64,000 nt of DNA from Flavobacteriales bacterium (GTDB taxonomy: Bacteria > Bacteroidota > Bacteroidia > Flavobacteriales_D > Cryomorphaceae), in assembly GCA_007125175.1 (NCBI GenBank), contig SLDS01000008.1, positions 2,156 through 66,155 of the forward strand, in the 5' to 3' direction. Position numbers and translations under genes: made by a program. Below, piece by piece: positions 30,724 through 60,883 of this stretch. The notes under the pieces were generated by a model, which ran no database searches, had not been told where the DNA came from, and saw only the letters and a program-made list of their open reading frames with translations. How positions within the stretch are numbered: the stretch's first letter is position 1; each line of letters starts with the position of its first letter.

Positions 30724-30741
30724 AATCTTTTTTTAGCTCAG

Positions 30742-30768
30742 AAAGCCCGGCCTTTGTGCCGGGTTTTT
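30742..30768 (+). terminator. Intrinsic terminator after gldJ
   Basis: CCCGGC-CTTTGT-GCCGGG hairpin (6 GC-rich bp, extendable by A-T pairs) followed by TTTTT. Confidence 0.7.
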
Positions 30769-30779
30769 AATTTTACCCC

Positions 30780-43380: not shown

Positions 43381-43455
43381 TGGGCGATGTAGGATTCGAA
43401 CCTACGACCCCCTGCTTGTAAGGCAGGTGCTCTAAACCAGCTGAGCTAATCGCCC
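43381..43455 (-). tRNA. tRNA-Val (anticodon TAC)
   Basis: Hand-folded cloverleaf. Acceptor GGGCGAT/ATCGCCC, D-stem GCTC/GAGC, anticodon stem CCTGC/GCAGG with loop CTTACAA, variable loop GGGTC, T-arm GTAGG-TTCGAAT-CCTAC, discriminator A. CCA is not encoded. Confidence 0.93.
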
Positions 43456-43695: not shown

Positions 43696-43781
43696 GCCGA
43701 AGTGGTGAAATTGGTAGACACGCATGTTTCAGGGACATGTGCCCATCGGGCGTGGGGGTTCGAGTCCCTTCTTCGGCACCA
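43696..43781 (+). tRNA. tRNA-Leu (anticodon CAG), class II with long variable arm, CCA encoded
   Basis: Acceptor GCCGAAG/CTTCGGC, D-region GTGAAATTGGTAGACAC, anticodon stem CATGT/ACATG with loop TTCAGGG, variable arm GCCCATCGGGCGT, T-arm GGGGG-TTCGAGT-CCCTT, discriminator A followed by CCA. Confidence 0.93.
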
Positions 43782-45489: not shown

Positions 45490-46044
45490 ATGAAAATCTA
45501 CACCAAAACCGGTGATGCCGGAAAAACCTCCTTGCTGGGAGGCAGCCGCGTCGCCAAGTACCACCTGCGCATCGAAGCCTACGGCACCGTCGATGAGCTC
45601 AATGCACACATCGGACTGCTGCGTTCCTACAAGGAGTGCCAAGTGCATGAAGAAATCCTGCTGCAGGTGCAGGACAGGCTCTTTACCATTGGCTCAGAGC
45701 TCGCTTCGGAGCCTGGAGATCGCAAGTTCAAGATTCCTCAAATTCAGCAGGATGATATCGAAGTGCTCGAGAAGCAAATCGATCAAATGGACGCAGACCT
45801 GCCCCCAATGCGCAACTTTGTATTGCCGGGAGGAAGCCTGGCTGTATCGCAAGCCCATGTGGCGCGGTGCGTATGCCGGAGGGCTGAGCGCATCGTCTTG
45901 CACCTCAAAGATGAGAGCGATGTGAAAGAGCCCATACCCATTTATTTGAACCGATTGTCAGATTTTTTATTTATACTGAGTAGGAAACTTGCTCATACTA
46001 CCGGCGTAGTAGAGAGTCCATGGAAGCCAAAAATAGATGAATGA
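45490..46044 (+). CDS. ATP:cob(I)alamin adenosyltransferase, PduO type
   Basis: N-terminal signature MKIYTKTGDAGKTSLLGG and a helical-bundle body (FVLPGGS...AHVARCVCRRAER). Confidence 0.9.
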   Translation: MKIYTKTGDAGKTSLLGGSRVAKYHLRIEAYGTVDELNAHIGLLRSYKECQVHEEILLQVQDRLFTIGSELASEPGDRKFKIPQIQQDDIEVLEKQIDQMDADLPPMRNFVLPGGSLAVSQAHVARCVCRRAERIVLHLKDESDVKEPIPIYLNRLSDFLFILSRKLAHTTGVVESPWKPKIDE

Positions 46045-46102
46045 TTTGATATTGAATGTATTGCAAATCATAGATTTGACTTGCATGGGAAAACAAAAAA
46101 AC

Positions 46103-55080: not shown

Positions 55081-56745
55081 ATGAGATTCTTACAAGCCGG
55101 CTCAGTGCTCCTGGCAGCTCTGTGCATTTTCTTTTCCAATCCCTTACATGCCCAGGAATCCCTGCGCTGTGCCACCGTCGAAGCCCATGAGATGCTCAGA
55201 GAGCGCCATCCGGAGATAGGCAGCGATGAAGAATTCGAAGAATGGCTACAAAAGTCCATAGAGGCTTTTCAGCAAAAAAGTGGCGATACAGAAGTGGTGA
55301 GCCTTCCCGTGGTTTTTCACGTGATCCACACCAACGAAGCGGTGGGCGGCAATGACAACCTCAGCCCGGCCCTCATAAACGCCCAACTCGAGCAGATTAA
55401 CAATGACTTTCGCCGCATACAAGGGAGCAGTGGCTTCAATACAAACCCCGTGGGAGCCGATACGCGCATCGAGTTTTGCATGGCCATAGTCGACCCGAAT
55501 GGAGAGCCCATGGCGGAGCCGGGAGTCAACCGGGTCAATACGCAGTCTCTGGGGTTCAACACCCAGCCTTACAGCATTCAATACATGGACAATACCGTGA
55601 AGCCAATCACCCAGTGGGATCCCGCTCAGTACATCAATATCTGGGTGGCAAGGATCAATTTCTTCTTTTTCCTGCCCATTGAAGGCTATGCGCAGTTTCC
55701 CAGCCAAAGCGGCCTGCCCGGACTCAATCCGGACGAAGGCCCGGCCAATTCCGATGGGGTGGTGGTAAGGCACCGCACGGTGGGCTCCACAGACCTGCCC
55801 AATCCTCAGGGGGGCAATTTCGGGCAGGGACGCACCCTCACCCATGAGTTGGGCCACTTCTTCGGGCTGCGCCACATTTGGGGCGATGGCAACTGCAGTG
55901 CAGATGACTTTTGCGATGATACTCCTAACAGTAGTGGTTCCACCTCCGGCTGTCCTTCCAATAAGGTGACCTGCGATACTCCCGACATGATCGAAAACTA
56001 CATGGACTACACCGATGATGCCTGCATGAACATTTTCACCATGTGTCAAAAAACACGCATGCAGGCAGTGATGGCCAATAGCCCACGTCGTGGCAGTCTG
56101 ATCAATAGCACGGCTTGCGGCATCGAGCCTGAAGTGCCTCCCTGCGAAAATCCCTACCCACAAGTGGAAAACCTACAGGCCACCGTTGCTGCGGATGGTT
56201 CAGTAGAGCTGAGCTGGACACCCATCCCCGGCTCGCTTGGATGCCAGGTGCAAGGAGGGCTCGCCAGCGGCAATGGCCCGGTTCAAAACAATGAAATCCT
56301 CGGTGATGCTCCATCTTCCTTTGTGGTTTCGGCCGGGCTTCTCAATCCCAATACGGAATACCGCTGGAGGGTGCGCTGCGGCTGCTCGCGCAATCCTTTG
56401 GTGGCTGGCCCGTGGACACCATACAACTTCTTCACCTACAGCATTCCATCGGGCGCAGCTACTGAGCTCTTGGCGATGCGCAAGGCTTCTTCGGATTTTG
56501 GGGCCCACATCTATCCCAATCCATCCAAGGGGCTTTTTCAAATGGAAGTGACCGCCGAGGAGGGAGTCTACCAAGTGTCTGTCTACAATGCGCTGGGGCT
56601 GCGTCTCAAAGCCGATCGATTGCAGCTGCCATCCGGCACTTCCACCCACGAACTCGACCTGCATGGCTACGCTGCCGGCATCTACTTTGTGAAAATCGAA
56701 TCGCCGACAGTTTCCGAGACGGTACGCATCGCTGTACAGCAATAA
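55081..56745 (+). CDS. Secreted zinc metalloprotease, peptidase M43 (pappalysin/cytophagalysin-like), with FN3-like domain and T9SS C-terminal sorting domain
   Basis: Signal peptide. Extended zinc motif HELGHFFGLRHIWGD. Internal domain with SWTPIPG...YRWRVRCGC. CTD: HIYPNPSKGLFQMEV...GIYFVKIES...RIAVQQ. Confidence 0.85.
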   Translation: MRFLQAGSVLLAALCIFFSNPLHAQESLRCATVEAHEMLRERHPEIGSDEEFEEWLQKSIEAFQQKSGDTEVVSLPVVFHVIHTNEAVGGNDNLSPALINAQLEQINNDFRRIQGSSGFNTNPVGADTRIEFCMAIVDPNGEPMAEPGVNRVNTQSLGFNTQPYSIQYMDNTVKPITQWDPAQYINIWVARINFFFFLPIEGYAQFPSQSGLPGLNPDEGPANSDGVVVRHRTVGSTDLPNPQGGNFGQGRTLTHELGHFFGLRHIWGDGNCSADDFCDDTPNSSGSTSGCPSNKVTCDTPDMIENYMDYTDDACMNIFTMCQKTRMQAVMANSPRRGSLINSTACGIEPEVPPCENPYPQVENLQATVAADGSVELSWTPIPGSLGCQVQGGLASGNGPVQNNEILGDAPSSFVVSAGLLNPNTEYRWRVRCGCSRNPLVAGPWTPYNFFTYSIPSGAATELLAMRKASSDFGAHIYPNPSKGLFQMEVTAEEGVYQVSVYNALGLRLKADRLQLPSGTSTHELDLHGYAAGIYFVKIESPTVSETVRIAVQQ

Positions 56746-56774
56746 GGGCCTTCGGATTAGGATTGTTCTACAAA

Positions 56775-56861
56775 ATGGTTTACTTTCGAATTTCAATTGA
56801 TCCAATGAACTGCTGGACGCCCTTCTTCCACACTTTTTACTTTAGCTTCTCATCGGAGTAG
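56775..56861 (+). CDS. Candidate leader peptide (28 aa: MVYFRISIDPMNCWTPFFHTFYFSFSSE) of the aromatic amino-acid operon
   Basis: Own translation; too short for the ORF track. 6 Phe, 2 Tyr and 1 Trp, with 7 aromatic residues in the last 15 codons. It lies between a near-consensus -7 box (TAGGATTG, 56758..56765) and a terminator in front of pheA. An alternative start is the ATG at 56805. Confidence 0.5.
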   Translation: MVYFRISIDPMNCWTPFFHTFYFSFSSE

Positions 56862-56925
56862 GGCCGGGCGTTTTTTTGATCATGCAAATTCAAAAATATC
56901 AGAGGCCCTCAGGGGCCTTTTTTTT
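56819..56925 (+). promoter_or_regulatory. Candidate transcription attenuator (segments 1-4 with mutually exclusive pairings)
   Basis: Traced by hand. Segment 1 (56819-28, GCCCTTCTTC) pairs with segment 2 (56855-64, GGAGTAGGGC) in 9 pairs, including 1 G.U, with 1 mismatch. Segment 2' (56860-65, AGGGCC) pairs with segment 3 (56904-09, GGCCCT) in 6 bp. Segment 3 (56901-08) pairs with segment 4 (56913-20) to form the terminator. Segment 1 consists of the Pro-Phe-Phe codons of the leader ORF. Confidence 0.45.
56901..56925 (+). terminator. Intrinsic terminator immediately upstream of the pheA ATG (attenuator 3:4 hairpin)
   Basis: AGAGGCCC-TCAG-GGGCCTTT: 5 G-C pairs plus A-T, G.U and A-T. The tetraloop is followed by a T8 run (56918-56925). 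The pheA ATG starts at 56926. Confidence 0.65.
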
Positions 56926-57777
56926 ATGCAGACAGCGCATGCACATTCCGGTAGATGGGCCATTCAGGGTGGGAGGGGCTCCTTCCATCATTTGGCTGCC
57001 ATGCAGCTTGGTCTGAGAGGTGAGGAAGACCTTATACCTTGCAGCGATTTTTACAGCCTGGCCCATTTGGTCGGTACAGAGGATGAGGTGCAAGGGGTGA
57101 TGGCCATTGAAAATTCAGTAGCGGGAAGCCTGCTGCGCAATTACGAACTTTTGCGCACCTTTCCACTGCGGATCGCTGCAGAAATCTACCTCCGCATTGA
57201 GCAGCATTTATTGGTAAACCCCGGAAGCAGCCTGGAGGCGCTGCGAGAGGTGCACTCCCATCCCATGGCCCTGGCGCAGTGTGGTATTTTTTTGCGTAAG
57301 CATAAACACATCAAGCTTGTGGAAACAGAGGATACGGCAATGAGCGCCGAAGCACTGGCCGCCAATCCCAAGCCCGAGCGCGCTGTGATAGCGAGTAAAT
57401 TGGCTGCGTCGCTCTTTGGTCTCGAGACATGCCGCAGCCATATCGAGGATCATCGCCAAAACTATACGCGATTTTTGCTGCTGCAAAAAGGTGAGATGCA
57501 CGGTCATGCTGCGAAAGCCTCACTGGCACTGCTCCTTCCCCACCAACCGGGAGCCCTGCAGAGGGTGCTTGAGGCTGCTGCCACAGTCTCCCTCAACCTC
57601 ACCAAAATTCAGAGTGTGCCACTTGTCGGAAATCCTTGGCATTACCGCTTTTATATCGATGTGGAGCGGGTCGATGGACTGGATGAGCAATGGCTGTTGG
57701 CATTGTTTCACGCGCATTGCGAAGAAATTGAAGTGCTCGGGATATACGCTCCCGGCGAAATTTTTGAAGAGAACTGA
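56926..57777 (+). CDS. pheA: Prephenate dehydratase
   Basis: N-terminal WAIQGGRGSFHHLAA, the TRF motif (NYTRFLLL) and a C-terminal ACT domain. 283 aa. Confidence 0.9.
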   Translation: MQTAHAHSGRWAIQGGRGSFHHLAAMQLGLRGEEDLIPCSDFYSLAHLVGTEDEVQGVMAIENSVAGSLLRNYELLRTFPLRIAAEIYLRIEQHLLVNPGSSLEALREVHSHPMALAQCGIFLRKHKHIKLVETEDTAMSAEALAANPKPERAVIASKLAASLFGLETCRSHIEDHRQNYTRFLLLQKGEMHGHAAKASLALLLPHQPGALQRVLEAAATVSLNLTKIQSVPLVGNPWHYRFYIDVERVDGLDEQWLLALFHAHCEEIEVLGIYAPGEIFEEN

Positions 57778-57780
57778 GCT

Positions 57781-58953
57781 ATGGGGATTAAGCCTTCAAA
57801 TAGACTTGCTGGCGTCGGCACCTATTATTTTGCTGAAAAGCTGAGGCAAATCGATCGCATGCGGCGGGCTGGTCGCCATATCATCAATCTCGGCATTGGC
57901 AGCCCCGATTTGCCTCCCCACCCCGATGTGATTCGCGTATTGAGCGAGGCTGCATCGCGACCCATGAATCACGGTTATCAGAGCTACCGGGGCATCCCGG
58001 AGCTCAGGGAGGCCTTTGCCGAATGGTATGCGCGTGAGTACGCTTTTCGCCCTGATCCGGAGAGAGAGCTGCTCCCTCTCATGGGCAGCAAGGAGGGCAT
58101 CATGCACCTCAGCATGGCCCTCTTGGATCCCGGTGATGTGGTGCTGGTACCCAATCCCGGCTATCCGGGCTATGCGGCTGCCGCCAAATTGGCCGGTGCC
58201 GAGGTGCGCCACTATGAACTCTCAGCCGAGCGGGGCTGGCAGCCCGATATTGCTGCAATCGAAGCTCAGGATTTGAGCGGTGTCAAGATGTTGTGGCTCA
58301 ATTATCCACATATGCCCACCGGTACGCCGGGAAATCCTGATACTTTTGCCGAGCTCATCGCATTTGCCAGAAGGCGCAACATATTGCTTTGTCACGACAA
58401 TCCCTACAATGGTCTGCTCAACCCGCGTGCGATCAGCCTTATCGCCCAGCCGGGTGCAATGGATGTGGCGGTGGAGCTCAACTCCCTGAGCAAAACATAC
58501 AATATGGCGGGCTGGAGGCTGGGAGTGATGCTCGGTAATGAGGAGATGGTCAATACGGTACTTCGCTTCAAGAGCAATATGGACAGTGGAATGTTCAAGC
58601 CGGTGCAGCTCGCCGGTGCACGCGCCCTCGGCTTGGATGCGGGCTGGATGGAGGAGCTTAACAAGACCTATACAATGCGACAAAAGCTGGCCCTCCAAGT
58701 GCTTGAGGCTTTGGATTGCCGGGTCGATGGAGCTCAGGTAGGCCTCTTCCTCTGGGCCGAAGTAGCTCCTGAATGGCCCAATGCAGAAAGTCTTAGCGAG
58801 GAGCTGCTCATGCAAGCAGGGCTTTTCATCACCCCGGGCTTTATTTTTGGTTCGGCTGGCGATCGCTACCTGCGCATCTCACTTTGCAGCCCGACGGAAG
58901 ACCTCGAGCAAGCCCTCGAGCAGTGCAAATCATTCAAACATTTGGGTTCATGA
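57781..58953 (+). CDS. Pyridoxal-phosphate-dependent aminotransferase, class I (probable aromatic/prephenate aminotransferase by context)
   Basis: PLP-lysine motif NSLSKTYNMAGWRLG. Also GSPDLPP and NPGYPGY motifs. Lies between pheA and tyrA. Confidence 0.85.
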   Translation: MGIKPSNRLAGVGTYYFAEKLRQIDRMRRAGRHIINLGIGSPDLPPHPDVIRVLSEAASRPMNHGYQSYRGIPELREAFAEWYAREYAFRPDPERELLPLMGSKEGIMHLSMALLDPGDVVLVPNPGYPGYAAAAKLAGAEVRHYELSAERGWQPDIAAIEAQDLSGVKMLWLNYPHMPTGTPGNPDTFAELIAFARRRNILLCHDNPYNGLLNPRAISLIAQPGAMDVAVELNSLSKTYNMAGWRLGVMLGNEEMVNTVLRFKSNMDSGMFKPVQLAGARALGLDAGWMEELNKTYTMRQKLALQVLEALDCRVDGAQVGLFLWAEVAPEWPNAESLSEELLMQAGLFITPGFIFGSAGDRYLRISLCSPTEDLEQALEQCKSFKHLGS

Positions 58954-59795
58954 AGGCCACAGTAATCGGTTTGGGATTGATCGGAGGATCTATTGCCTTA
59001 GAGCTTAAGGTTCTGGGCTACACGGTGTGTGGCGTGGATGCAAAGGATGCCCATGCCCATATGGCCCTGGATCGCGGTCTCGTCCACAAGCTGGCATCCC
59101 TGGAGGCCTCCCTGCAAGATGCCGAGCTTATCGTGCTGGCTACGCCTGTGGATGCCTCGCTAAAACTCTTGCCGCAGCTCTTGGATATGCTCAGTGAAAA
59201 TCAGGTGCTCATCGATCTATGCTCCACCAAAGGCAGCCTTTGTAGCGCAGTGGAGCGGCATGCGCGAAGGCCTCAGTATGTGGCTTGTCACCCGATGGCG
59301 GGTACGGAGCATTCGGGCCCTGCAGCCGCTGTTCAGGGGCTTTTTCGCGATCGCTTCATGGTGATTTGCGAGCGTGAGCGAAGCAGTGGCTTTGCCGTGG
59401 CTTATGTGGAGGCGCTTTTCGCAAAAATGGAGATGCGCACCGTGTACTATGAGGCCGATGAGCACGACATGCACGCGGCTTTCGTATCACACATATCACA
59501 CGTGAGCTCATTCGCATTGGCGCTCACTGTGCTCGACAAGGAGGAGAGTGACAAAGCCATATTTCAGCTTGCAGCGGGTGGCTTCACCTCCACAGTGCGA
59601 CTCGCCAAAAGCGCTCCGCATACATGGGTACCCATTTTCCGGCAGAACCGGAATCACCTTCTTGAGGTCATGGATGCCCACATGCAAAAGCTCGTGCAAT
59701 TTCGCGATGCCCTCGAACGCGATGATGCAGAGAGGCTGGAATCGCTGATGCAGAGGGCCAATGAGATCAAACGAATTATTGATGTAGCACTTTAA
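58950..59795 (+). CDS. tyrA: Prephenate dehydrogenase
   Basis: Rossmann N-terminus MKATVIGLGLIGGSIAL and the HPMAG catalytic motif. The ATG at 58950 overlaps the upstream stop (ATGA). The track's 22-codon extension is rejected. Confidence 0.9.
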   Translation: MKATVIGLGLIGGSIALELKVLGYTVCGVDAKDAHAHMALDRGLVHKLASLEASLQDAELIVLATPVDASLKLLPQLLDMLSENQVLIDLCSTKGSLCSAVERHARRPQYVACHPMAGTEHSGPAAAVQGLFRDRFMVICERERSSGFAVAYVEALFAKMEMRTVYYEADEHDMHAAFVSHISHVSSFALALTVLDKEESDKAIFQLAAGGFTSTVRLAKSAPHTWVPIFRQNRNHLLEVMDAHMQKLVQFRDALERDDAERLESLMQRANEIKRIIDVAL

Positions 59796-59800
59796 AGCAA

Positions 59801-60883
59801 ATGGAGATGAATACGAATCGAAGTCCTTTTTTCAAAGGGCAGGGCAGCCGACCCTATTGGATAGCCGGCCCCTGCAGTGCAGAGACAGAGCAGCAAGTGC
59901 TCGAAACGGCCCATGGCCTGAAGGATGCGGGGATCGACCTCTTCAGAGCGGGGATATGGAAGCCCAGGACCCGGCCGGGAGATTTCGAAGGCAATGGAAG
60001 TCCGGCACTCCCTTGGCTGCAAAGGGTAAAAGAAGAGACGGGCCTCTCCGTGTGTACCGAAGTCGCCAATGCCCAGCACGCCGAGGAGGCGCTCCGTTGC
60101 GGGGTGGATGTGCTGTGGATCGGCGCTCGAAGCACCACCAATCCCTTTTCGGTGCAGGAGATCGCGGATGCCCTGCAGGGTGTCGATATTCCTGTAATGG
60201 TCAAAAACCCCATCAATCCTGATATCAAGCTTTGGATGGGCGCACTGGAGCGCATCGAGCGCGCTGGAATCAAGAAAGTAGCCGTCATTCACAGGGGTTT
60301 CAGTACTTTCGGAAAAGACAAGTACCGTAATCAGCCCAGGTGGCAACTCGCCATAGAGCTCAAGCGTCAATTTCCCGATCTGGCCTTCATTTGCGATAGC
60401 AGCCATATTTGCGGAAGCAGGGAGTGGCTATACGATGTATCTCAAAAGGCTCTGGACCTCAACTACGACGGCATCATGCTCGAGGTGCATCCCAGACCCC
60501 ATGAAGCCTGGAGCGACGCACTGCAGCAGATTACTCCCGATCAGTACAAGGAGGTGAAGTCCAAGCTGAACTTTCGCTACAGCAGCACCGATGATGTTGA
60601 CTTTCTCGACTCTCTCGAAGCACTTCGCGGGCAAATTGACGAAATAGACGATGAGATACTCGCCCTTCTCGAGGCGAGGATGAAACTGTGCGATGGGATA
60701 GGCCGCTTCAAGAAGCGCAACAATATCGCCATACTTCAGACCTCTCGCTGGAGCGAAATACTCGAGAAAAGCATAGCAAAAGGCCAACGCAAAGGATTGA
60801 GCAGTGAACTGATAAGCGGAGTGATGAAGGCAGTGCACCAGGAGAGTATCAACCGCCAGCACAAGGTGATGCGGGATGCCTGA
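59801..60883 (+). CDS. Bifunctional 3-deoxy-7-phosphoheptulonate (DAHP) synthase / chorismate mutase (AroA Ibeta-type with C-terminal AroQ domain)
   Basis: KDO8PS-like DAHPS motifs (WIAGPCSAE, KPRTRPGDFEG, ICDSSHI). C-terminal about 90 aa has the AroQ helix pattern (LRGQIDEIDDEILALLEARMKL...RWSEILE). Confidence 0.85.
   Translation: MEMNTNRSPFFKGQGSRPYWIAGPCSAETEQQVLETAHGLKDAGIDLFRAGIWKPRTRPGDFEGNGSPALPWLQRVKEETGLSVCTEVANAQHAEEALRCGVDVLWIGARSTTNPFSVQEIADALQGVDIPVMVKNPINPDIKLWMGALERIERAGIKKVAVIHRGFSTFGKDKYRNQPRWQLAIELKRQFPDLAFICDSSHICGSREWLYDVSQKALDLNYDGIMLEVHPRPHEAWSDALQQITPDQYKEVKSKLNFRYSSTDDVDFLDSLEALRGQIDEIDDEILALLEARMKLCDGIGRFKKRNNIAILQTSRWSEILEKSIAKGQRKGLSSELISGVMKAVHQESINRQHKVMRDA

Follow-up and report, generated by a model that had tools for sequence, protein, structure and literature searches.

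A putative Phe/Tyr leader-peptide attenuator upstream of the pheA operon in a Flavobacteriales genome

The 180-nucleotide (nt) spacer in front of pheA, the prephenate dehydratase gene, on contig SLDS01000008.1 of a Flavobacteriales bacterium (Cryomorphaceae; assembly GCA_007125175.1) was analysed as part of a 64,000-nt stretch (forward-strand positions 2,156 to 66,155 of the contig), which is called the window here and whose numbering is used throughout. The spacer, placed by an initial annotation between the stop codon of an M43 protease gene and the pheA ATG, was checked and lies at 56746–56925 between two genes that are both on the + strand. In all probability (about 85%) it carries a leader-peptide transcription attenuator, which would sense charged tRNA-Phe and tRNA-Tyr and so gate an operon of pheA, an aminotransferase gene, tyrA and an aroG/chorismate mutase fusion. 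The elements of such a switch are present in the spacer, its decisive pairings exclude one another, and the arrangement is conserved and covaries in relatives. The ribosome-sensed Phe/Tyr attenuator proposed in the initial annotation therefore finds support in clade conservation, covariation and masked folding. Two samples were compared with the window: the contigs of 12 close relatives (the clade), with PheA 47–66% identical to that of the window, and 80 pheA loci from a scan of GTDB species genomes, which together with the window and its clade gave 82 counted loci.

The leader had been described as a 28-codon open reading frame (ORF) at 56775–56861 (MVYFRISIDPMNCWTPFFHTFYFSFSSE), and the counts given for it agree with the sequence (six Phe, two Tyr and one Trp, with seven aromatics in the last 15 codons). 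The aromatic-rich frame ending at 56861 is upheld, but its start is not, as the conserved start is at 56805; the true leader is most likely the 18-codon ORF, followed by TAG, that opens at this second ATG (56805–56861, + strand) and encodes MNCWTPFFHTFYFSFSSE. Relatives have an ATG at the equivalent position together with the residues F-Y-F. Seven of its 18 residues are aromatic, and the presumed regulatory codons are F7-F8 (56823–56828), F11-Y12-F13 (56835–56843) and F15 (56847–56849). The 56775 start was rejected on three counts: the corresponding ATG of the relative L081 opens a different frame (MHYFRFTN*), in L082, L088 and L089 there is no in-frame upstream start, and the ATG sits 5′ of a conserved promoter-like box, TACTTTCG (56781–56788, + strand), discussed below. 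At the nucleotide level, this ATG is part of a conserved run, AAAATG..TACTTTCG. With five aromatics in its best eight consecutive residues, the ORF is one of the two top-scoring loci when the 1314 ATG mini-ORFs of the 64 kb are ranked; the only other mini-ORF of the window to reach five in eight residues lies at 45967–46086 on the − strand (MQVKSMICNTFNIKSFIYFWLPWTLYYAGSMSKFPTQYK).

The pairing segments, all on the + strand, were recovered as they had been traced by hand in the initial annotation. Segment 1 (GCCCUUCUUCC, 56819–56829) covers codons P6-F7-F8 and was delimited from minimum free energy (MFE) structures, and segment 2 (GGAGUAGGGCC, 56855–56865), delimited from the conserved TAGGGC and from folds, holds both the leader stop codon (56859–56861) and AGGGCC, the 5′ strand of the antiterminator. 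The 1:2 pairing joins GCCCTTCTTC (56819–56828) to GGAGTAGGGC (56855–56864) in nine pairs, one of them G-U, with one mismatch, and is present in the MFE fold; segment 1 has an alternative register in which ACGCCC (56816–56821) pairs with GGGCGU (56866–56871). AGGGCC (56860–56865) is the exact complement of GGCCCT (56904–56909), and within the antiterminator a small hairpin, UUUUUGA (56873–56879) with UCAAAAA (56890–56896), was found by folding (56873–56896). Beginning 39 nt past the leader stop, the intrinsic terminator (56901–56925) was identified by a terminator scan; it consists of segment 3 (AGAGGCCC, 56901–56908), the loop UCAG and segment 4 (GGGCCUUU, 56913–56920), i.e., the GC-rich hairpin AGAGGCCC-TCAG-GGGCCTTT (56901–56920), with a T8 tract (56918–56925) that abuts the pheA ATG. 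The computed energies are −16.5 kcal/mol for the 1:2 region, −16.3 kcal/mol for the 2:3 antiterminator including its nested hairpin and −13.7 kcal/mol for the 3:4 terminator hairpin. Since the 2:3 and 3:4 pairings both use 56904–56909, they are mutually exclusive, and, as had been anticipated, they are also competitive.

Right behind the leader stop, GGGCGT followed by T7 (56866–56877) duplicates the GGGC antiterminator strand (AGGGCCGGGCG), a feature seen in 0/12 relatives. Together with ACGCCC (56816–56821) it could possibly form a long-loop hairpin with a U tract, an extra pause or termination site. The T7 at 56871–56877 was also considered as a conserved first terminator and rejected: it occurs in no relative, and in the window it is one strand of the nested hairpin.

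The dependence of these structures on a ribosome was modelled by masking a 28-nt ribosome footprint and folding the nascent RNA without the terminator 3′ arm, for the window and six relatives (L081, L082, L083, L085, L087 and L089). The 2:3 helix formed in 7/7 cases with the footprint over the F/Y codons and in 0/7 with it over the stop codon. With the ribosome absent, 1:2 folded and segment 3 was left for the terminator in four of the seven. From the sequence we infer the following order of events, from the start of transcription through leader translation and termination to the response to Phe and Tyr. Transcription would begin a few bases past the box TACTTTCG, and a ribosome would translate the 18-codon leader. 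With Phe and Tyr plentiful it would reach the UAG at 56859–56861, its footprint covering UAGGGCC, the antiterminator 5′ strand; GGCCC (56904–56908) would then pair with GGGCC (56913–56917), and the hairpin with its U8 would terminate transcription at the edge of the pheA AUG. If Phe-tRNA or Tyr-tRNA were scarce, the ribosome would stall at F7-F8 or F11-Y12-F13 and cover segment 1, leaving AGGGCC free to pair with GGCCCU once this is made, aided by the nested hairpin, so that the terminator would be blocked and RNA polymerase would enter pheA. Without translation, 1:2 would pair and the terminator would form.

Close relatives of this PheA are few (the best is 66% identical, the next at most 57%), and the genes that lie 5′ of pheA in them vary, being an aldehyde dehydrogenase and M43 protease, an opposite-strand Mo-oxidoreductase, or a short-chain dehydrogenase. 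All 12 nevertheless have the same set of elements before pheA whatever the upstream gene. Their leaders are 18–21 codons long, mostly 18, with F-Y-F at the aligned position. Beside MNCWTPFFHTFYFSFSSE in the window, the peptides read MNNNTWFYFSFYFTRLAE (L081), MTLSTFNYFSFYFTHRVQ (L082), MTPSTFKYFSFYFTILVP (L147), MTLSTRAYFGFYFTPWVG (L148), MTLSNTAYFWFYFTHRVQ (L149), MTLSTRVYFGFYFTSKVK (L083/L084), MTLSIRVYFGFYFTSKVK (L085), MTLSNFAYFGFYFPVRER (L087/L088), MTLSANTFFYSWYFFHKKK (L089) and MFQTTNSTNNTYFAFYFQVQT (L151), and the aromatic core is all that is conserved at the peptide level. TAGGGC, i.e., the stop codon plus GGC, is found in 12 of the 13 clade sequences, the remaining one (L151) having TAG-AAAGGGC. 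The small hairpin has an equivalent in the relatives (TTGTA..TACAA; 93% of cells paired), and a terminator of the form GGCCC-N4-5-GGGCC-T7 stands directly before the pheA ATG in most of them; the 3′ arm reads GGGTC in L149, L089 and L151, and the last two of these have a gap of a few bases between terminator and ATG. The 1:2 pairing of the relatives is a local hairpin in which F-Y-F and the next two codons pair with the last codons and UAGGGCxx. Seven of its pairs show compensatory changes (for example, at the apex, ACCC/GGGT, ACCA/TGGT, ACCT/AGGT and TCCC/GGGA); 88.7% of its cells pair, as against 32–58% with slid partners, and 0/500 shuffles attain the observed values for covariation score, for the paired fraction or for the number of cells that change on both sides. 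An attempt to find further members by scanning metagenomes with the pattern TACTTTN{12,18}TAGGGCN{40,62}TTTTTTTATG gave 56 matches, all due to chance, as none had a PheA homologue downstream and none a leader.

The wider sample, drawn from Chitinophagales, Saprospiraceae, Bacteroidales, Flavobacteriales, Sphingobacteriales and Marinilabiliales, places this clade within a much larger family. The initial annotation had suggested comparing related Flavobacteriia for a conserved aromatic mini-ORF and compensatory stem changes; both were found, the mini-ORFs being near-universal, but the nearest named PheA relatives of the window are Chitinophagales and Saprospiraceae rather than Flavobacteriia. 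An F/Y-rich ATG mini-ORF with an intrinsic terminator past its stop precedes pheA at 73/82 loci, the terminator beginning 15–53 nt past the leader stop except at one locus (107 nt). Stretches with at least six aromatics per eight residues occur at 77/82 loci on the forward strand, compared with 1/82 on the reverse strand and 3/410 shuffled regions. The leaders average 24 codons and consist of 22% Phe, 15% Tyr and 1% Trp, and the high share of both Phe and Tyr matches an operon that makes both amino acids. The 3′ segment of each leader pairs better with the 5′ arm of its own terminator than with mismatched ones (mean −9.3 versus −7.0 kcal/mol; 0/2000 permutations across the phylum), and terminators with non-standard arms have matched partners, as in CCCACCTC/GAGGTGGG, GGAGCTCC/GGAGCT.. 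and GTCCTGC/GCAGGAT. Many Chitinophagales leaders (among L001–L080) end in ...(R/K/S)PG(M/L)LLL... or ...SPGSFC...; these endings are what the antiterminator strand, CCGGGAU(G)CUU, encodes, and their seeming conservation as peptide thus reflects RNA pairing and not peptide function. A profile hidden Markov model built from 65 leaders, with the window's clade excluded, has its best match in the 64-kb window at 56835–56925, a weak one (E=0.0055, 12.3 bits). Its second match, weaker still (E=0.28), is a terminator-like hairpin at 30740–30771 (− strand), AAAAACCCGGCAC-AAA-GGCCGGGCTTTCT, of the CCCGGC/GCCGGG type typical of the family terminators.

The box TACTTTCG resembles the Bacteroidota −7 element TAnnTTTG. 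Among the 12 clade sequences, with their differing upstream genes, its pattern T-A-(C)-n-T-T-C-(G) hardly varies, five positions being invariant, and across the phylum sample an exact TAnnTTTG lies at most 70 nt 5′ of the leader ATG at 54/82 loci, versus 2/82 on the reverse strand. In the clade the leader ATG follows the box by 14–17 nt, in L151 (283–297) by only 4 nt; despite these differing ATG positions the distance from the box to the Tyr codon of F-Y-F is exactly 49 nt in both the window and L151. In Flavobacterium psychrophilum a mapped transcription start lies 6 nt past such a −7 box (Guerin et al. 2021, PMC9723704). On the strength of the conserved box, the fixed 49-nt spacing and this mapped start, transcription in the window is predicted to begin at about 56793–56795, which would put the 56775 ATG outside the leader transcript, though any RNA reading through from the protease gene would still contain it. 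Of 12 aligned clade sequences, 11 have a second motif, (A/T)TTG, 5 nt 5′ of the leader ATG (in the window at 56796–56799; TTCAATTG at 56792–56799). It may belong to the translation-start context or act as another −7 element; as a −7 box it would imply a leaderless mRNA, and this is the less likely option, ranked below TACTTTCG, because the motif has no TA and because L151 has only TAACTTCG, at the same 49 nt from F-Y-F. Elsewhere in the family, an exact TAnnTTTG ends 5–9 nt before the leader ATG in 24 of the 57 boxes counted (L006, L012, L018, L080 and about 20 others). With transcription starting 5–6 nt past the box, such leader ORFs would lie on leaderless or nearly leaderless mRNAs.

Several points weigh against an attenuator in the window. 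Its −7-like box reads TTCG and not TTTG, and the comparison of promoter regions showed no clear −33 element. The core 2:3 helix has only 6–7 base pairs, and at equilibrium the 1:2 plus 3:4 fold wins in every state, forcing 2:3 costing 7.5 kcal/mol, so that the switch must be kinetic and work by co-transcriptional trapping, like classical attenuators. The 1:2 register of the window is unlike that of its relatives, where codons 10–15 make segment 1, and within the clade 2:3 and 3:4 yield no covariation, both helices being almost invariant. The leader stands at the weak end of the family, with five aromatics per eight residues against a typical seven to eight. About 4% of dinucleotide-shuffled 400-nt upstream regions equal this score, and the spacer as a whole does not fold with unusual energy (z=−0.7 and −0.55). 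Judged from the window alone, the feature is only moderately non-random. The last two results would suit a plainer explanation, in which the hairpin and T tract do no more than terminate the M43 protease gene and the T-rich spacer yields an aromatic mini-ORF by chance, the more so as the scan found no other terminator 3′ of the protease gene. Conservation in relatives, on the other hand, makes the feature clearly non-random: leader, TAGGGC and terminator stay with pheA where the upstream gene differs or is on the opposite strand, the same arrangement recurs at the 73 of 82 loci, and stems 1:2 and 2:3 covary. Nor are the relatives assembly duplicates of one locus, given PheA identities of 47–66%. 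Chance association with a protease terminator is accordingly a most improbable account, though the terminator at 56901–56925 may also stop protease transcripts.

The position of the terminator, which ends 5 nt before the pheA AUG as a hairpin and touches it as a U tract, raises the question of whether the switch acts mainly on translation, with the hairpin at 56901–56920 blocking initiation, stalling in the leader opening it through 2:3, and the U tract serving mainly as a spacer or enhancer. In Bacteroidota, ribosomes require a start region that is rich in A/U and free of structure. The hairpin and U tract lie right against the AUG in every clade member (ending 4–9 nt away), and the same alternative pairings would free or sequester that region. 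A GC-rich stem with seven to eight U residues is, however, the canonical signature of an intrinsic terminator, and closeness to the AUG is not the conserved trait, as the distance from terminator to pheA ATG ranges from 4 to more than 200 nt across the wider family. In F. psychrophilum, moreover, the 5′ region is expressed at levels that are separate from those of the coding genes and depend on conditions, which the authors read as control by read-through (PMC9723704). A mainly translational switch is consequently unlikely; effects on termination and on initiation may coexist, and in the preferred transcriptional attenuator the 3:4 hairpin, ending as it does 5 nt before the AUG, may also impede pheA initiation on read-through RNA and thereby reinforce the switch.

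A third account would keep the attenuator and change its sensor, invoking an RNA-binding protein, a small-molecule riboswitch or a tRNA, or would make the mini-ORF a functional small hydrophobic peptide. The peptide is indeed hydrophobic, and its translation is a prediction. What is conserved, however, is the F/Y codons and the RNA pairing segments alone, the other residues varying freely, and the conserved position of the stop inside the antiterminator strand is sensible only if a ribosome reads up to it. No Rfam riboswitch, T-box or protein-binding leader matches even at E≤10. Such control is thus very unlikely, and sensing by a translating ribosome is retained. The Rfam comparison suggested in the initial annotation turned up no matching family: none of the Rfam 15 leader families matches 56650–57000 at E≤10. 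Phe_leader (RF01859) has no gathering-threshold match in the window and none at E≤10 in 56650–57000, the covariance model of Bacteroid-trp (RF01692) has no match in the window, and a scan of 20 family loci gave no match to Rfam 15. The sole gathering-level Rfam matches in the window are two divergent tRNA genes, at 43381–43455 (−) and 43696–43778 (+).

The initial annotation knew of no Phe/Tyr leader described for a pheA operon in this phylum, but one had already been annotated, a 27-residue F/Y leader attenuator before pheA-aspC3 of F. psychrophilum (THC0290_N_0195; Guerin et al. 2021, ISME Commun 1:33, PMC9723704, SI D9, Table S7). It has a mapped transcription start and a 170-nt 5′ region, it is read through under specific conditions with an expression peak in minimal medium, and it was reported as conserved in other Flavobacteriaceae genera and without an Rfam hit (PMC9723704). 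Both systems belong to the same phylum and have the same first gene and the order pheA then aminotransferase. In each, a short ORF with tandem F/Y codons (MNTNNTFYSNNSFYFYWNIGRDCYMVI in F. psychrophilum) is followed by an intrinsic terminator and a 5′ segment is complementary to the terminator 5′ arm, and the leader profile that detects the window also matches the published leader (E=5e-9). They differ in that the leader of F. psychrophilum has 27 codons and that of the window 18, and in that the antiterminator strand lies inside the ORF in the former, whereas it overlaps the stop codon in the latter. The window's stem is GGCCC/GGGCC rather than of the family-typical TCCCG/CGGGA type, its U tract touches the pheA AUG, and its predicted 5′ untranslated region is about 10 nt compared with 20 nt; transcription start and expression were measured for the F. 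psychrophilum element, the start in the window being predicted.

The more distant parallels are those of the textbook. E. coli pheL-pheA (Rfam Phe_leader, RF01859) shares the four-segment logic, a Phe codon sensor, a terminator before pheA and a leader of 15–18 codons, but its leader is Phe-only (seven Phe) and tyrA is regulated separately, whereas in the window F and Y codons alternate and the operon holds both pheA and tyrA; the putative translation-start and promoter signals of the window are also of the Bacteroidota type, without a Shine-Dalgarno sequence, unlike those of pheL. With E. coli trpL (the trpL side again from textbook knowledge) the modelled switch shares exclusive 1:2, 2:3 and 3:4 pairings, termination by default without translation and, roughly, the distance between regulatory codons and terminator end, about 76–100 nt in the window; it would sense other amino acids, has its stop inside segment 2 and has a shorter 2:3 helix with a nested hairpin. 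As modelled, the window would have the features of a classical four-segment attenuator, namely exclusive pairings, regulatory codons that lie within segment 1 or adjoin it, and a 3:4 terminator. Bacteroid-trp (RF01692; Weinberg et al. 2010, PMC2864571) is likewise a Bacteroidota leader-peptide attenuator candidate before an aromatic amino-acid operon, but it precedes trpE and uses Trp codons, while the leader of the window has a single Trp and precedes pheA. In B. thetaiotaomicron, leader-like small ORFs were described in long 5′ untranslated regions, pheA not being among them (Ryan et al. 2020).

A bolder proposal, put forward tentatively and on balance doubtful, is that the window and its 12 relatives form a distinct compact variant of an uncatalogued, phylum-wide family of attenuators that sense both Phe and Tyr. 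In this variant the stop would lie inside the antiterminator strand (UAG-GGC) and the U tract would be fused to the pheA AUG, one switch setting both termination and initiation, and many leaders of the wider family would be leaderless or nearly so, with a −7 box 5–9 nt from the ATG.

The genes around the spacer are all on the + strand. Upstream lies the M43/Por_Secre_tail protease gene (55081–56745), encoding a secreted metalloprotease with a type IX secretion tail. Downstream, the aromatic biosynthesis genes named in the initial annotation were borne out by Pfam matches: pheA, the presumed first regulated gene (56926–57777; PDT, E=1.4e-49), a class I/II aminotransferase gene (57781–58953; Aminotran_1_2, E=4e-62), a tyrA-type prephenate dehydrogenase gene (58950–59795; PDH_N and PDH_C) and a DAHP synthase–chorismate mutase fusion (59801–60883; DAHP_synth_1 and CM_2). 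A mechanical ORF list puts the start of the prephenate dehydrogenase too early, at a TTG at 58884; it is most likely the ATG at 58950, which overlaps the aminotransferase stop in the sequence ATGA (58950–58953). The identical 4-nt overlap in L081 suggests translational coupling of the two genes.

The feature is not novel in kind, as the same device appears, from sequence comparison, to precede pheA across Bacteroidota; the element of the window is a clade-specific compact form within this phylum-wide family, for which Rfam 15 has no model. No established concept is changed, and a specialist would not be surprised. In the accessible literature the family is recorded only in one species' supplementary table. 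A comparative attenuator study by Lopatovskaya, Seliverstov and Lyubetsky (2010, Mol Biol 44:128) may already list Bacteroidetes phe attenuators. For the genome itself, an 18-codon leader and attenuator are due for annotation in place of an empty spacer, and with them aromatic amino-acid biosynthesis gains a testable regulatory signal in a Bacteroidota lineage that has been little sampled. With a curated Rfam family, operons in thousands of genomes would be better annotated, and these leaders offer a natural system for ribosome-coupled attenuation in a phylum without Shine-Dalgarno-led initiation.

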